Assembly (NCBI GenBank): GCA_965649215.1
Contig: CBFGJZ010000037.1
Coordinates: 1 to 9,242, forward strand
Direction: 5' to 3'
DNA length: 9,242 bases
Source: a candidate division WOR-3 bacterium
GTDB taxonomy: Bacteria > Hydrothermota > Tepidihabitantia > Tepidihabitantales > CAIPLT01
Position numbers: made by a program
Shown: in pieces, positions 1 to 9,000 of the stretch
Numbering within the stretch: position 1 is the first letter of the stretch
Layout: every line of letters begins with the position of its first letter

Positions 1-3000
1 CCAATATTCAGCGGTATTGCCACCGCCGAACTGAATTGTTTGTCCATACAGCGCCCAACTCCCGAAAACAATAAGTAAACTAAAGACAAAGAATAATTTA
101 TTTTTTACTGTCATCGCATTTTTTAGTTAATTCTCTAATCTTTTCCATAACTTTTTTCTCATCACCTGGCTTATAACCCTGATGGGTAAATATAATCTTC
201 TTGTTCTGGTCAACAATGAAAAAAGTGGGCATTACCTGCACATTATATGATTTACGCAGCTTATTTTCAGGATCTAAAACAATCTGATATTGCCATTTAT
301 GGCCTGCGGCAAAAGATTTAACTTCATCTTTGGACTTTGCTTTATCTTGGCTGATCGCTAAAAAACTAATACCCAATGAATCTATCTCTGGATAGTAAGG
401 TTTTAAGGCATCAAGTTCTTTAATACACATCTTACACCATAATGCCCAAAAACTCATTATCACGGGGCCCTTTTTGATGAGTGAATCAAGCACAACTAAC
501 TTACCATTAATATCATAAAGACTAAAACTGCTTGCATCTTTAAGAGTTATGGTCTTATCTTCTGCGTGCAGTCCTGCACTGATTAATAGTAATATTGATA
601 TTAAAGTTATAATTATCTTTTTCATATCACTCCACAAACTTGGTTTTTATTGCTTGTAATATTTTTTTACTTTGTCGATCTTGCAGAAAAACAACTCCTC
701 GCATTTTAGGCGGGGCAATGTTGTGATTAAAATTAATAATTGTATCTAAACTATCTGGATAACTAACATTAATGGGTATCGTCGTGAGTTGTCTTACGAC
801 AAAATTAAAAGTACCCCCGAGATCACCTCGGATGCTATCCTCGCATATCGCAATAAAGGCGTAAACTGAATCGTGCCGAATGGTATCCGCAGCACCTATC
901 TTCAGGTGTAATTGACCGCTATTAACCGTCACACTACCCGTTAATTCTAAATTGTAACTTGGCACAATTGATTTGGCAACAATATAGTGCTGATTAAAAA
1001 CTGTATCATAAGCATTGGGATTATTCTCAAAAACAACATCTGTCCCATCAAAAACTACGGTTGGATAAGCTAAAATATTATAATAATTCATTCGTTCTTG
1101 AATCTGGGGTAGTTCAGGTTGTACAGAATGATTATAAGAGACAATCACTATTGAATCTCCATAATTAGTATGCAATTGAACAAGCGACTGCTCCGCAGCC
1201 GCACAAAAAGGTCAACCATCCTCAGTAAAAAACTCAACTAAAACAACGCGATTAGTTGGTGTCGGCAAGATGCGCGGTGCTTCCGAACAAAAAACAAAAA
1301 ACAGCGGTAATAACAATAAAAATCTCTCTATCTTCATTCTATTATTATAACTCCGATATCTTTAATGTCAATTTATTTACTTAACTTTAAGTTCGATGTC
1401 GTCAGCAAGGACCCTTGCTTCACATGAAGCACCTCAGCATCCATTGGTTGTATCCATAACAACAATTTGAAGCTTTTTTATATCCGAAACAGTAATTCCG
1501 GATAAGTGACTCAATTCTTCGCTAATCTTAAAGCTGTAATTGTACCAGCTGTCCATATGTGGTACATTTATTAAATGTAGCGTGCTAGTATTTTGCCAAG
1601 GGCAATGCGCTGTTTTAGAGACGATACGGGTTTCACCTAATAATTGGTAGCTGTCATTTAAATATCTTAAACAAATTGCCGCGGCTGCCCAATAAGAAGC
1701 ATTGGGGTTATATTCAATTGCTCGTAAATTTGCTTTCGCAGAAAACTGAAGATCACTTGTTGGAAAATCTATGGTCTGGTACAATTTAATGTGTCCGGCA
1801 TTGATCTTTTCTATAACTAACTCAAAATCATTATCTCCATCTAAGTTTTGATAGCGAGCAATCTCGTCTGAATAATTTAATCCGGAAGTATTCCTTTGCC
1901 ACCCGCTATTTAAGTCTTGCTCAAAATCACCATTAACAATCACTTTATTTATTATTGGCGATGAAGAATTACGATGGCAAGCACTAACAATAATAAAAAT
2001 TACTAATAGAAAAAAAGTTTTACGCAATTACCTTAATTATTCCACTAATACTACTCGATAGCTAACTTTCTTGTGGTTATCAAGTACTAAATCAATGAAA
2101 TACACACCTGAATTTAGTTTCTGATTGTAGTCGTCTTTGCCATCCCACACTACAATATTTTCTTGATTATTTTTAGTATTTATAGTTTTAACACAATTAC
2201 CTAGTGTATTATAAATCCGCACTTTAATCTCTCGATGATTATCTGCTGAATATTGAAAATAAACCTGCTTACCAATTTTGATTGGATTAGGATAAATTCT
2301 AAATTGAGTTGAACTAATTTGGGTTTGGGGTGTTTCTTGAATGCCTGACAAGGTTATACCAAAAAATTTCATTATAGAATCAAGCAATATCTGTTTTGTC
2401 GAAGGTGCCGTACCATCTACCAAACTACCAAACTCAAACGAAACACCGATTGTCCGATAATTACCTGCATTATAAGCAACGCCACAATTATAACTATTAT
2501 TGCCGTCTTGGAATATCACATAACCAGTTGTCGCATTAATCCGATCCATATAGTTATTTTCTCCTGAATAATTGAAGTCCATTCCTGCAGTAAAAGTGTT
2601 ACTTACACCGATAACCGGTCCCATATCGCCGCTGCCATCGCTTACCCCAACTAAACCAAACATCGTATTAAAATTATGTCCGCCCACTTGTGGGTCATAA
2701 TACCAGACTTCGCCTCCTTCCATGTAAACTCGACCACCGCTGTTAAGATAATTAATTATCGCAGTTGCCTCAGCACCATTGGCAGCAATCCGATAATTAT
2801 TCGGGTAGACACCACAACAAACAAAGATCGACCGATAAATATCTAAGGTCGGTTCCGCAAGTAAATTAGTTGTAATCGCCCCAGTATAGCCATTAAAAGT
2901 TAAAAGATTGTGAATCGTTTGACCTGATGAAGGTGTGATATCTGGGTTCCAAACCAAATAATGATAAGAACCAACCACCAACGTGAAATTAAAGGTATCA

Positions 3001-6000: not shown

Positions 6001-9000
6001 ATTAACTGTCCCAATAAATCTTTCACTTCATGCATCGGCAGATTAATATCTTTAGCAATTTCAATTGGTTTTTTAGCCAAGTCAAAATTTGTTCTTAAGT
6101 CTTCTTCAACCAAAACTATTGGTTCAGCCGTTTCGGTACGTGCTAAATGGCCTAATAATTCCTCATTATAGCCTTTGATTTTTATAGCTTTTGGTTCTAG
6201 AATAATGCCACCCCCTATGGTTGTTTGAGGCGAATAAGTTCTTATCACAAACCGGTCGTTGATGCCGCAAACCACAGATTCTTCTAAGCGGAATTGGACA
6301 ATCGCTTTATCCCCCGGATTTAATAATTTCTTATCCAGAAGCACAACTCGACCTAACACTTCTTTAGTACCGATATGAATTCGCAATCGTTCAAAGTTTC
6401 TTAGTGGCTTATCAATTCTACTTAACAGGTATAAGGAAGCATTTACAAACATGGATGGTTCATAAAAACCACCTTGCGCTAAAACATCACCTCTTTCAAT
6501 CTCGTCTTTTTCAACGCCCACTAAATTAATTGCCGCCCGAAATCCTGTACCGACTTCGTCTACTTGTTTGTTGTGTACTTCAATCCCTCGTACCTTAACT
6601 ATCTTCTTTTGAGGTAAAAGTTCCAATTCTGCTCCGACTTTGGTTTTCCCTGATAAAATAGTACCAGCCACCACGGTTCCAAACCCCTTAATGGTAAAAC
6701 AACGGTCTATCGGCATTCTAAAAATTCCTCGGTCAATTTTAGTTTCGGTCTCACCAATCAATTTATCTAATATGCGCTTTAGCTCATCAATACCTTCTAA
6801 AGTAACATTTGAAACCGAAACAATTGGCGCACTTTCCAGAAAAGAATTGCGCATTAACTCTTTAACATCATTCATAACAATCTTCAATCGTTCCTCTTTT
6901 ACTAAATCTTTCTTAGTAATCACTACGATTCCTTTTTTAATCGCCAATAGTTTTAAAATTTCTAAATGCTCATAGGTTTGGGGCATAATACCATCATCAG
7001 CCGCAATCACAAATATAACAATATCTACAGTCGAAGCACCGGCTACCATATGTCGAACAAATTTCTCGTGTCCAGGCACATCAATAATCGTAGCATTATC
7101 CCCATAAAAGACGAAACCTAAATCAGTGGTCATACCTCGTTCTTTTTCTTCTTTTAATCGGTCTGGATCCACACCCGTCAAAGCTTTAACTAAAGCGCTT
7201 TTACCATGGTCAATATGACCAGCCGTCCCAATAACAATGTGTCGTTTTATCGTATCAGTCATATTTTACTACATTGTTTCTCGAAATGCTTGTAATATAA
7301 TCTCACCTTCGCCAGGAAGAATGGTACGAAAATCTAACATTAATGCGTTCGCTTGAACTCTACCAAAAATAGGTATTTTATATTGTCTCAATTTTCTTGC
7401 TAATTCTTGGCTGGGCATAATTTTTGGTTGGATCGAGACAACATAACTATCAAGTTCTTTGGTTGATAACGAACCGCCGCCAATTTCGGCNNNNNNNNNN
7501 NNNNNNNNNNNNNNNNNNNNNNNNNNNNNNNNNNNNNNNNNNNNNNNNNNNNNNNNNNNNNNNNNNNNNNNNNNNNNNNNNNNNNNGTCTGCAAGGTTGC
7601 TTCTAATACCGCATTTGTTAATTTATCACAACGCAAAGCCCGAGTGAGCGGGTGTTTCTTAATCTTTTCAATATATTCTTTTTTGCCAACAATAATTCCT
7701 GCTTGGGGTCCACCGATTAATTTATCGCCACTAAAACAGACAACATCAGCGCCTGTTTCGATACTTTCTCTAACCATTGGTTCTTTGGGTAAGCCGTATT
7801 TACTAAAATCAATCAACGCGCCACTTCCTAAGTCATCGACCACAGGAATATGATACTTTTTACCTAATGCGACTAGTTCAGACAATGGTACTTCTTTAGT
7901 AAAACCAGTTATTTGATAATTAGATTGGTGGATCCGAATAATTGCACCAGTTTCTGGCTCTAAACCTAATTCACTGTTGGATTTTTGATTAATTTTTCTT
8001 TCTCTCTTTTTGCCTTTATTTTTAATGTGTATCGCTTGTTCATAATCTTTAAGATGGGTCCGATTTGTTGTCCCAACTTCTTTCATAATACAACCTGATT
8101 GTGCCATAATTTCAGGAATCCGAAACGAACCGCCGATTTCAATCAACTGGCCACGAGAAACAATTACTTCTTTGCCTTGAGCTAATGCTCGCAAAACTAA
8201 TAAGGTTGCGCCAGCATTATTGTTAACTACAATACCTGCTTCGGCACCTGTTAAAATTTGGAGTAGTTTACTAATCTTTTTATAGCGGTCATCTCTTTTG
8301 CCTTCATCGTCAATTTGTAATCTTGAATATGCTTTAGCGACATCTGCCAATATCTCCGGGATACCACTGACAAAAGGTGCTCGACCAAGGCCGGTATGAA
8401 GCACAATGCCAAGGGCATTTATCGCATACTTAAAATACCTTTGAGTTAGATAATTCAATTCGCCAACTATCATCTGTCTTAAATTATCTGTATTTAACGA
8501 TTCGCCTTTAAGCAGTTTTTGTCTAAACTCATCAACCTTATCTCTAATAATCTTAACCAAGTATCTATGCTCTAATCTATCTTCAAACTCTTTAATTTCC
8601 TGCCAATTAAGAATTTTATCAACCGACGGAATATCTTTAAGTAATGATTTTTTATTAATCGTTGCCATAAACAATTATAGATTAGAGTATTAAGATGTCA
8701 ACGCTTAGAATCGTGATTTTAATTAATTATCAACATCTTTTTTTATGTTAGAATAAATTACTTGTTATTAAAGATTCTGTGATTAAATTTGTTTCAAGAT
8801 TATTATTAAAATTTCAATTGTATTACGCTTCAATTCCTAAATCTTTCAGTTTTTTATATAATTGCACACGTTGAATATTTAATGCTTTAGCGGTTTTAGT
8901 TTTATTATAGTTGTTTTCCGCCAATACTTTTAAGATAAATGCTTTTTGAAATTCATTGGTTGCTTGTTTGAGTGTCTGATTGGTATTAACTTGCGAGTTG

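Follow-up and report, generated by a model that had tools for sequence, protein, structure and literature searches.

Background

TlpA/ResA proteins together with CcdA constitute a periplasmic reducing pathway, in which TlpA-type proteins are reductants of specific periplasmic clients. Mammalian thioredoxin reductase carries a Gly-Cys-Sec-Gly redox centre at its C-terminus, and the SECIS element of Escherichia coli fdhF is a hairpin that lies soon after the UGA and has an apical GGUC-type loop. HBP35 of Porphyromonas gingivalis, a T9SS-secreted protein, is reported to be located at the surface and to have a thioredoxin activity that requires its two cysteines (PMC2907840). Bacterial selenoproteins with a Cys-Sec (CU) dipeptide have been catalogued as SaoL, SaoC, HgcA, MbdU and KCU-star (PMC13188914; 10.1101/2022.07.06.499078), and the Omp28-related selenoproteins of model NF045500 correspond to the ‘hypothetical protein GOS_C’ in Table 1 of PMC13188914.

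Here we analysed a window of 9,242 nt, contig CBFGJZ010000037.1 of a candidate division WOR-3 bacterium (GCA_965649215.1), in which selA, selB and tRNA-Sec adjoin five co-directional genes, named A to E. All five encode exported proteins, and four of them, A to D, encode selenoproteins. The host is described as an uncultured hot-spring bacterium.

Layout of the locus

The features of the window are listed from high to low coordinates.

8823–9242, minus strand: 3′ end of a gene for a sigma-54-dependent transcriptional activator, context upstream of selA (AAA_lid_14 89.6 bits, HTH_8 40.3 bits)
8674–8701, minus strand: promoter-like site immediately upstream of selA (TTGACA-16-TATAAT, 12/12)
7400–8674, minus strand: selA, selenocysteine synthase (TIGR00474, 440.3 bits against a cut-off of 267.9; N gap 7491–7586)
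5232–7262, minus strand: selB, Sec-specific elongation factor (TIGR00475, 333.6 bits against 242.25; N gap 5682–5780)
5135–5228, plus strand: tRNA-Sec, anticodon UCA (ARAGORN; Rfam RF01852, 77.5 bits against 47)
5042–5070, minus strand: promoter-like site upstream of gene A (TTGACA-17-TAAAAT with TG, 11/12)
3968–5017, minus strand: gene A, exported HBP35/Omp28-like thioredoxin-fold selenoprotein of 349 aa, U38 (TGA 4904–4906; C-x7-U-x-x-C, T9SS C-terminal sorting domain)
4872–4888, minus strand: SECIS-like hairpin of A (GCCAGU...ACUGGC, by folding), beginning 15 nt past the UGA
2037–3950, minus strand: gene B, signal peptide, CBM-like β-sandwich and T9SS tail, by translation (TGA 3381–3383; loop C-U-S-G-H-C; TIGR04183, 31.5 bits against 23)
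3351–3366, minus strand: SECIS hairpin of B (GGCGAG GGUC CUCGCC; fold z = -2.91)
1377–2027, minus strand: gene C, lipoprotein of 216 aa consisting of the CBM-like Cys-Sec domain alone, U198, by translation (TGA 1434–1436; N-G-C-U-G-A-S-C)
1404–1419, minus strand: SECIS hairpin of C (AGCAAG GGUC CUUGCU), set apart from that of B by two compensatory pairs, both at synonymous positions
1344–1371, minus strand: promoter-like site within the 39-nt C-D spacer (TTGACA-16-TATAAT, 12/12)
627–1337, minus strand: gene D, lipoprotein of 236 aa, U42, U-P-F-C (TGA 1212–1214; thioredoxin-like motif and Omp28-like C-terminal part)
1184–1202, minus strand: SECIS-like hairpin of D (GCGGCUGC GGA GCAGUCGC, by folding)
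98–625, minus strand: gene E, exported TlpA/ResA-like thiol-disulfide oxidoreductase (W-C-K-M-C), beginning 1 nt past the stop of D

A, B, C and D each contain one in-frame TGA with a hairpin after it; the true stop of D is the TGA at 627–629. Gene B starts at an ATG with GGAG upstream, with an alternative TTG at 3965. On recount, the intergenic gaps among the five packed genes were those given by the first-pass annotation (17, 9, 39 and 1 nt), and selA and selB are, as it stated, broken by assembly gaps; a profile search found SelB winged-helix domains in the selB product. The tRNA-Sec that it had placed beside these genes is present, with the amendment that it lies opposite to all other genes, an orientation that recurs in two relatives (G141 and G179). 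The same annotation had called the cluster an operon, but a single operon is unproven, as near-perfect promoter-like sites precede A and lie in the C-D spacer. These sites, which are consensus matches only and of which the whole window holds 31 against 34.4 in shuffled sequences (no excess), suggest that A-B-C and D-E may be two transcription units.

Selenocysteine decoding

All four in-frame TGAs behave as Sec codons, as judged from conserved columns beside Cys, conserved hairpins, a full machinery (selA, selB, tRNA-Sec and selD are all present) and the Cys residues of D paralogs. Across 201 genomes of the phylum, exactly one TGA was found in 119 of 124 matches to the B/C family, spread over 56 genomes, and its column is constant across 30–50% identity; U occupies a single column at 29 of 29 loci, with C just before it in 28. 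SelA scored above cut-off in 54 of the 56 genomes holding this family. The B/C hairpin, with its GGUC loop, has 99.6% of 234 cells paired and compensatory changes in four of six pairs, a level reached in 0 of 500 shuffles; the encoded residues R..L, K..F and E..S co-vary such that the stem is preserved. For A and D, the earlier report that Sec and hairpins are conserved in orthologs was reproduced: U is kept in 16 of 16 homologs of A, and one TGA is present in all 22 matches to D at ≥39% identity, while TGA-less D paralogs align Cys with U in every case (8/8). Read by eye, the hairpin of A is kept in orthologs with its closing pair changing from U-A to C-G, and that of D is kept with a GGUC-loop variant in some. 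By folding energy alone, none of the individual hairpins of A, C and D reaches significance (z = -1.10, -0.73 and -0.61). The hairpins are of the canonical bacterial SECIS type, beginning 9–15 nt past the UGA. Like the fdhF element, they come soon after the UGA, and an apical loop of GGUC type is seen; unlike it, they have a short 6-bp stem that lacks a bulged U, and are a putative SelB target.

One could instead suppose that these genes are split or broken, or that a variant code reads TGA as another amino acid. Public gene calls do stop at the TGA, most database matches end at query position 190–199, and 22 of 27 database relatives of C, all ~180–208 aa long, end at Cys (16 of them at ...N-G-C). 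We consider this reading scarcely credible, as it is already contradicted by the conserved TGA column, the covarying hairpins and the distribution of SelA. Moreover, TGA has an ordinary stop role in this genome, where 180 of 1026 long ORFs end with it, and in B the signal peptide lies before the TGA and the secretion tail after it.

The encoded proteins

The AF2 model of A (pLDDT 91.0) consists of a thioredoxin fold plus a sandwich, with U at the N-terminal end of helix 1 in the position of thioredoxin's first Cys. Its best Foldseek match is HBP35 (PDB 5y1a; E 8e-13, TM 0.78); in both proteins a thioredoxin-like domain precedes a β-sandwich, which precedes a T9SS C-terminal domain, and the redox motif opens helix 1. 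At the sequence level the two are only 16% identical, and A differs in having Sec for the first Cys and an extra conserved Cys eight residues upstream, and in being encoded alongside further selenoproteins in a conserved cluster. Profile matches of A were to Por_Secre_tail (41.5 bits against 27) and Omp28 (35.0 against 34.9), and residues 34–100 of D matched Thioredoxin_2, Glutaredoxin and TraF, all weakly. Both A and D resemble the NF045500 family in bearing an N-terminal U-x-x-C on an Omp28-like protein, and that model covers most of each; however, the weak scores noted previously recurred for both NF045500 (A 43.1 and D 25.8 bits, cut-off 200) and NF033782 (A 43.2 and D 31.5 bits, cut-off 150). 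With NF045500 scores so far under the cut-off, A and D are, by profile, distant relatives of Omp28/GOS_C rather than members.

B and C have in common the Cys-Sec dyad, which in B sits in the loop preceding the last strand; the spacer modules of B are common to other T9SS cargo. The ‘CBM-like’ label given to these proteins holds for the fold, since the AF2 model of C (pLDDT 95.9, pTM 0.91) matched CBM16, CBM11, CBM4 and CBM61 in Foldseek, but not for the sequence, to which no carbohydrate-binding family matches. No model in Pfam or NCBIfam covers the domain, and it is not in the 119-family Table 1 of a 2026 selenoprotein review (PMC13188914); the selenoprotein catalogues compared do not include the family of B and C. 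The catalogued CU proteins share with B and C the dipeptide and a public annotation that ends at the TGA. They have unrelated folds and are cytoplasmic or transporter-linked rather than T9SS cargo, and none of the NCBIfam models of SaoL, SaoC, HgcA, MbdU and KCU-star matches B, C or a propeller protein encoded elsewhere in the genome. The vicinal Cys-Sec also recalls mammalian thioredoxin reductase (C has N-G-C-U-G and many relatives C-U-G), a non-homologous enzyme; in B and C the dyad is in an internal loop of a secreted β-sandwich that lacks a flavoprotein part. In most members a His adjoins the dyad (C-U-x-G-H-C or H-x-C-U). Some are without this His, or without the Cys ahead of Sec, with S-G-U found in 4 of 39 sequences, and longer homologs have A, D, R, P or G at the Sec column, never Cys among those read.

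Gene E, as reported before, matches AhpC-TSA (74.5 bits) and Redoxin (62.1 bits). It shares with TlpA/ResA this fold, a W-C-x-x-C motif and an N-terminal export signal, and the genome has a CcdA gene (on contig C6) translationally coupled to a thioredoxin-domain gene. E falls below the equivalog cut-offs of ResA (NF002854, 79.9 bits against 170) and TlpA (21.9 against 230), and its proposed clients are selenoproteins rather than cytochromes or copper proteins.

The T9SS tails of A and B score above cut-off, in a genome that has a PorU-like gene and no fewer than 40 genes with such tails. From these tails A and B are predicted to be targeted to the cell surface, and C, D and E are predicted to be retained in the periplasm or at a membrane.

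Gene order in related genomes

The A-B and D-E orders recur across the class, in line with the recurring A-B-(C)-D-E synteny described earlier: A and B are adjacent in 12 of 12 regions holding A, and D and E in 15 of 15 holding D. B-D-E order was found in ten regions from two families, and G141 has the full selA-selB-tRNA-A-A-B-D-E order. Three relatives belonging to the same family have A-B on one contig and D-E on another, which also leaves a single operon unproven, and D-E is also found with no A-B nearby. Two genomes (G181 and G195) have A-B with no D ortholog alongside; thus, the pairs can occur apart and the five genes are not an obligate unit.

Discussion

We somewhat favour, at slightly better than even odds, a reading in which this selenocysteine island and its five exported proteins form an extracytoplasmic selenol/thiol redox relay. 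Sec decoding, domain folds, sequence-level export signals and gene linkage are its observed basis, from which we infer which way electrons flow, which proteins are partners and what the substrate would be. Reducing power would cross the inner membrane via CcdA to E, which would hand it on to the U-x-x-C centres in D and A; these in turn would pass it to the Cys-Sec dyad present in B and C. The dyad would then cycle between a selenolate and an eight-membered selenenylsulfide ring, acting on a substrate bound by the β-sandwich; candidates are a peroxide, a disulfide or polysulfide, or another oxidant. Several features argue against such a relay: surface display outside the outer membrane may sit oddly with the electron supply, a Sec column that does not turn to Cys in the longer homologs read is not what a Cys/Sec site with a redox role alone would usually show, the His beside the dyad would also suit a metal site, and the pairs A-B and D-E can occur apart.

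This same absence of Cys-for-Sec replacement among the homologs read suits a second reading, which we hold to be possible but clearly less probable, wherein the Cys-Sec loop of B/C and the propeller family would be a surface binding site (for soft metals or chalcogens such as Hg, Cu, As, polysulfide or selenium) serving detoxification or uptake rather than catalysis, with A, D and E only keeping it reduced. The His conserved beside the dyad in most members is as compatible with a metal site as with a catalytic one; hot-spring metagenome runs contain close relatives of this stretch; SaoL, SaoC, HgcA and MbdU are tied to metal or organometallic chemistry (PMC13188914; 10.1101/2022.07.06.499078); and HBP35 also binds hemin (PMC2907840). 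Profile matches and neighbourhoods revealed no metal transporter or resistance gene in the cluster, however, and the S-G-U members lack part of the putative site. It is less likely still, and in our judgement improbable, that A, D and E are a Dsb-like folding or maintenance system that forms or repairs the selenenylsulfide of B, C and propeller proteins during periplasmic transit, Sec being mainly structural or protective. The occurrence of D-E with no A-B nearby, the many Sec-bearing T9SS cargo genes in genomes of the class that would need such care, and the client-specific reduction typical of TlpA-type proteins are all compatible with this role. Yet the use of costly Sec by the helpers, and the strict pairing of A with B when both take the T9SS route, suggest that A acts with B at the surface, and a purely structural Sec should give way to Cys, which is not seen.

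Elsewhere in the genome, SelD (C3:101165-102073) has one TGA, as annotated, and the reported absence of PF00384 is matched by our finding no match in the 95.1%-complete genome. The proposal that Sec is otherwise devoted to secreted proteins agrees with type I signals in 16 of 16 A orthologs, a lipobox conserved in 20 of 20 D orthologs (C-S-E/D-A-P in 19, C-S-K-A-P in the remaining one), a conserved lipobox in C-like proteins (..S-A-C-H-R-N), and the tails of A and B. Every Sec protein found except SelD is thus predicted to be exported, a view supported by signals judged by eye and motif rather than by a predictor. The statement that four TGA scans had left no other candidate is contradicted by our own scan, which identified one more well-supported Sec gene (C3:30512-31930); its product is likewise exported and has a Cys-Sec dyad, strengthening the case for Sec use in exported proteins.

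Results

In-frame TGA codons of genes A to D

We are nearly certain that the TGA codons inside A, B, C and D, four genes of a tightly packed five-gene cluster, are read as selenocysteine (Sec). The genome (1.64 Mb, 95.1% complete, 36% G+C) holds selA, selB, tRNA-Sec and selD, selA and selB both being cut by assembly gaps, and SelD carries a TGA of its own. As described in the first-pass annotation, selA, selB and tRNA-Sec lie with the five packed genes on contig C37 (9242 bases); recalculated gene positions, spacings (17, 9, 39 and 1 nt) and NCBIfam scores all agree with that annotation, and tRNA-Sec was found on the plus strand. 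Every protein gene of the window is on the minus strand.

Features of contig C37
8823-9242, minus strand: sigma-54-dependent activator, C-terminal part, directly upstream of selA
8674-8701, minus strand: promoter-like site before selA (sigma-70-like, 12/12 matches)
7400-8674, minus strand: selA (TIGR00474, 440 bits), with an N run within
5232-7262, minus strand: selB (TIGR00475, 334 bits), with an N run within
5135-5228, plus strand: tRNA-Sec, opposing selA, selB and the cluster
5042-5070, minus strand: promoter-like site before A (sigma-70-like, 11/12 matches)
3968-5017, minus strand: A, thioredoxin-fold U-x-x-C protein
2037-3950, minus strand: B, protein with a CBM-like Cys-Sec domain
3351-3366, minus strand: B hairpin (stem 6 bp, loop GGUC, 15 nt after the UGA)
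1377-2027, minus strand: C, protein of 216 aa with a CBM-like Cys-Sec domain
1404-1419, minus strand: C hairpin (stem 6 bp, loop GGUC, 15 nt after the UGA)
1344-1371, minus strand: promoter-like site in the C-D gap (sigma-70-like, 12/12 matches)
627-1337, minus strand: D, thioredoxin-fold U-x-x-C protein
98-625, minus strand: E, TlpA/ResA-like CxxC protein

TIGR00474 matches selA in two separate stretches; the lysine-rich insert between them (K-N-K-G-K-K-R-E-R-K..., residues ~217-237) is distinct from the assembly gap.

TGA is a normal stop codon in this genome, terminating 180 of 1026 long ORFs, and a variant genetic code was therefore rejected. When C was searched against 201 genomes of the phylum, 124 matches were obtained in 56 genomes; exactly one TGA lies inside 119 of them, the open frames being mostly 640-750 residues long. 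In all 29 fetched B/C loci U occupies a single column, and in 28 it is preceded by Cys. A library of 1.84 billion representatives yielded 162 matches to C, most of them 180-200 residues long and ending at query position 190-199, where gene callers stop at the TGA. Twenty-two of 27 database relatives end at Cys (16 at ...N-G-C), and wherever a source names such a relative, the name is 'hypothetical protein'. Among longer TGA-less B/C homologs, the Sec column holds A, P, D, R or G in P0008, P0039, P0042, P0058 and P0077, and the loop is deleted in P0055; Cys occupies the column in none of the longer homologs that were read, an uncommon pattern in a family of selenoproteins. For D, one TGA is present in 22/22 matches at 39% identity or more, and Cys (C-x-x-C) takes the U column in 8/8 TGA-less paralogs; judged by alignment, these Cys-for-Sec paralogs are the classical Sec/Cys signature. 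U is likewise present in all 16 homologs of A found beside B genes, within the motif C-E-E-x-Y-x-E-x-U-x-x-C.

The B/C hairpin is conserved as a structure: in 39 distinct sequences pairing holds for 99.6% of 234 cells, and four of the six pairs show changes on both sides, a degree of covariation matched by none of 500 shuffles, and shifting the partner by 1-3 columns lowers pairing to 20-63%. The hairpins of B and C themselves are two compensatory pairs apart, at synonymous sites. The peptide over the stem is A-R-V-L-A, A-K-V-F-A or A-E-V-S-A, with no other residue pairs seen (alignment A2). In each of the pairs R..L, K..F and E..S the codons stay complementary. The SECIS stem constrains the protein sequence here, and would be an RNA structure that dictates which amino-acid pairs are permitted. 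For A and D, whose alignments were read by eye only, the hairpins are likewise conserved and show compensatory changes; folded as single sequences, the A, C and D hairpins have weak z-scores. The conserved TGA columns, the hairpins and the Sec machinery bear out the earlier claim that A to D are four Sec-containing genes.

Folds and export of the cluster proteins

B and C have in common an N-terminal domain of ~190 residues, with the motifs T-N-G-C-U-S-G-H-C and T-N-G-C-U-G-A-S-C, for which neither Pfam nor NCBIfam gives a match at E 0.1 or better. It is modelled as a jelly-roll beta-sandwich (pLDDT 95.9, pTM 0.91) in which the Cys-Sec dyad lies in a loop ahead of the last strand; the domain also has a conserved cysteine within C-P-W. 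Foldseek relates this model to CBM16, CBM11, CBM4 and CBM61 and to phage tailspike modules (TM 0.45-0.59); the predicted jelly-roll would thus be shared with CBM families, but by sequence the domain belongs to no described one. The remainder of B is a module common to T9SS-secreted proteases and Omp28-related proteins, as seen in an Atlas search that gave no clue to the activity of this C-terminal part, and a related-locus search with B alone found only relatives of its C-terminal modules.

In the model of A (pLDDT 91.0, pTM 0.89), a thioredoxin fold precedes a beta-sandwich and U stands at the N-terminus of helix 1. The best solved structure found with Foldseek is HBP35 of P. gingivalis (5y1a, E 8e-13, TM 0.78), followed by a DUF1223 protein and the Omp28 domain 2r2c, the latter covering the C-terminal half of A. 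HBP35 is reported to lie at the surface, to have a conserved C-terminal domain, to bind hemin and to show a thioredoxin activity dependent on both of its cysteines (PMC2907840). As modelled, A would resemble it in combining a thioredoxin-like domain with a sandwich, in having its redox motif where helix 1 starts and in carrying a T9SS C-terminal domain.

The U-x-x-C motif reads U-A-S-C in A and U-P-F-C in D. Both proteins match NF045500, an Omp28-related selenoprotein model that a review table lists as GOS_C with a U-x-x-C motif (PMC13188914). A U-x-x-C in an Omp28-like protein is thus common to GOS_C, A and D, but the curated cut-off of 200 bits is not reached (A 43.1, in agreement with the ~43 bits noted before; D 25.8), and scores so far below it make A and D distant relatives rather than members. 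E, previously described as a TlpA-like CxxC protein, keeps that description: it matches AhpC-TSA (74.5 bits, cut-off 26) and Redoxin (62.1 bits, cut-off 26.6), and has a W-C-K-M-C motif and a hydrophobic N-terminus, its predicted export signal. It falls below the equivalog cut-offs for ResA (NF002854, 79.9 bits against 170) and TlpA (NF047696, 21.9 against 230), and by its motif and domain matches is a TlpA/ResA-like W-C-x-x-C protein.

Signal peptides were assessed by eye and by conservation, a sequence-level judgement. A homologs have type I signals, ending in A-x-A in most of the 16; in D orthologs a hydrophobic stretch leads to an invariant Cys, after which 19 of 20 read S-E/D-A-P and one reads S-K-A-P; C-like proteins have ...C-H-R-N. 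Type IX tails were detected with TIGR04183 (cut-off 23) in A (41.4 bits) and B (31.5 bits), and A also matches Por_Secre_tail (41.5 bits against 27). With a sorting domain above cut-off and an N-terminal signal, A and B are predicted type IX secretion cargo. One gene of the genome is PorU-like, scoring 409.1 bits where the cut-off is 420, and tail-bearing genes number at least 40.

Gene order in relatives

Linkage was assessed in 20 regions from 16 genomes. B follows A immediately in all 12 regions that hold A, E follows D in all 15 that hold D, and the order B-D-E recurs in 10 regions from two families. In G141, a genome of the window's own family, selA-selB and a tRNA-Sec on the other strand are followed by A-A-B-D-E, and in G179 selB and tRNA-Sec are followed by A-B-D-E; tRNA-Sec is in the opposite orientation in both, as it is here. 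Several arrangements count against a single obligate unit: A-B and D-E are on separate contigs in G165, G091 and G117 (in G165 both at contig ends), G110 has D-E only, and G181 and G195 have A-B without an adjoining D ortholog. The three best promoter-like sites of the window occupy exactly its three coding-strand intergenic spaces, with no window-wide excess of such sites. Given those before A and in the C-D gap, the cluster may consist of two predicted transcription units, A-B-C and D-E. Hot-spring metagenome contigs from three studies (runs X1, X2 and X6) cover the cluster (window 98-5070) at 85-99% identity, one contig of 6033 bases bridging E, D, C and B. No RNA data set was listed as containing the stretch, and the single RNA contig run from a study that does contain it had no contig aligning there; neither outcome bears on expression.

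Other genes with an in-frame TGA

The genome was scanned for every in-frame TGA that connects an upstream segment having a start codon with a segment downstream, the flanks being scored with an in-frame hexamer model, and candidates were retained if the score exceeded 0.1 on both flanks or if a Cys lay at most 4 residues away. The scan covers Sec residues more than 10 codons from the start and more than 3 codons from the end of proteins of 70 aa or more. The Cys-based list recovers A, B, C, D and SelD. Of 20 candidates checked against Pfam, 18 were rejected as same-frame adjacent genes, spurious upstream starts or unsupported ORFs, one was accepted and one is doubtful; three short candidates with a Cys near U proved to be antisense shadows of longer ORFs. 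The statement of the first-pass annotation that the genome has no other Sec candidate no longer holds: the accepted gene, on contig C3 and outside the window, is a further one.

Genes on contig C3
C3:30512-31930, plus strand: propeller-like Sec gene, 472 aa (loci L096 and L116)
C3:36749-38035, minus strand: doubtful TGA gene, in-frame TGA at codon 36 (locus L104)

The product of the propeller-like gene carries both a signal peptide and a T9SS tail; its blades repeat Y-L-V-V-W, its Sec motif is W-Q-E-G-C-U-F-T-R-D, and no NCBIfam model matches it. Its family is large in the class, with many members of ~450 residues that contain one TGA and paralogs of ~900 residues that contain none. C-U falls at one column in 23/23 sequences and is followed by the hairpin GGAGUG CGGGU CACUCC, in which 99.3% of 138 cells are paired and three of six pairs are compensatory.

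In the doubtful gene the TGA separates a signal peptide from a 392-aa mature part without a Pfam match. At this column the seven homologs all carry T, I or P, never Cys or TGA, so that this TGA probably does not encode Sec; it may have arisen by nonsense mutation, from an error in assembly or as an oddity of the lineage.

Distribution of the Sec trait

A search of the 95.1%-complete genome for PF00384 came up blank, as had been claimed, and no SelU was found in it. SelA scores above cut-off in 65 of the 201 sampled genomes of the phylum, and in 54 of the 56 genomes that have the B/C family; one of the remaining two has a SelA fragment. In the 35 sampled genomes of the window's own order, including this one, SelA is present in 33, the B/C family in 32 and any molybdopterin-oxidoreductase match in six, none of them listed with a TGA; these counts, like those for the phylum, are descriptive only, since relatives are not independent. 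TGA-bearing molybdoenzymes were found in only three other families of the phylum sample.

Discussion

Bacterial selenoproteins are usually viewed as mostly cytoplasmic redox enzymes. In this genome it is apparently for exported proteins that the Sec trait is retained. We lean, without strong conviction, towards extending this to the whole uncultured order, which would keep its Sec machinery for a surface and periplasmic selenoproteome rather than for formate dehydrogenase: at least two uncatalogued Cys-Sec families, borne by a CBM-like sandwich and by a propeller respectively, with type IX export and with thioredoxin-fold partners that contain Sec themselves and whose genes adjoin selA, selB and tRNA-Sec. 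If so, secreted proteins alone would sustain the trait, and an outward-facing selenoenzyme system would be unusual in bacteria.

The two Cys-Sec families described here would stand on non-thioredoxin scaffolds; they match no Pfam or NCBIfam model and are absent from the table of 119 prokaryotic selenoprotein families in a review of May 2026. That table, in the portion available, includes GOS_C but no entry resembling a Cys-Sec protein of CBM-like or propeller type (PMC13188914). On Omp28, secreted, outer membrane, propeller or carbohydrate-related selenoproteins, the accessible parts of this review and of the BSepDB paper hold only the GOS_C row and unrelated entries. Full-text literature searches combining selenoproteins with Omp28, type IX secretion, Por_Secre_tail, WOR-3 or Cloacimon returned nothing relevant; they covered main texts, and further families may stand in supplements. 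As public gene calls end these proteins at the TGA, the surface proteomes of the phylum would be mis-annotated.

What the exported Sec residues do may be considered from gene content. The cluster encodes three thioredoxin-fold redox centres (the CxxC of E and the UxxC of D and A) together with a Cys-Sec dyad that sits on a scaffold of binding type; HBP35, the characterised protein nearest to A, is a surface thioredoxin. Together with a CcdA-like gene elsewhere in the genome, these features point to an extracytoplasmic selenol/thiol relay, in which electrons would pass from E to D or A and reach their end-point in the Cys-Sec loop of B and C. We hold the relay itself only tentatively, rating it slightly below an even chance; Sec decoding and relay, taken as one combined statement, we consider marginally favoured. 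In the main alternative the dyad, which often has His beside it, would instead bind a metal or chalcogen, as in other catalogued CU selenoproteins. Two observations lean towards such a role: Cys replaces Sec in none of the longer B/C homologs read, and no route is evident by which electrons would reach proteins beyond the outer membrane. If Sec is indeed kept for exported proteins, the linked TlpA-like protein, the two U-x-x-C proteins and the Cys-Sec domain form a concrete, purifiable set of partners with which selenium chemistry beyond the cytoplasm could be tested. The CcdA-like gene is the only DsbD_TM/CcdA-like gene of the genome (C6:79007-80700, plus strand, locus L156), and it overlaps the stop of a gene for a 330-aa protein whose N-terminal part is SurA-like and which also has a thioredoxin domain.
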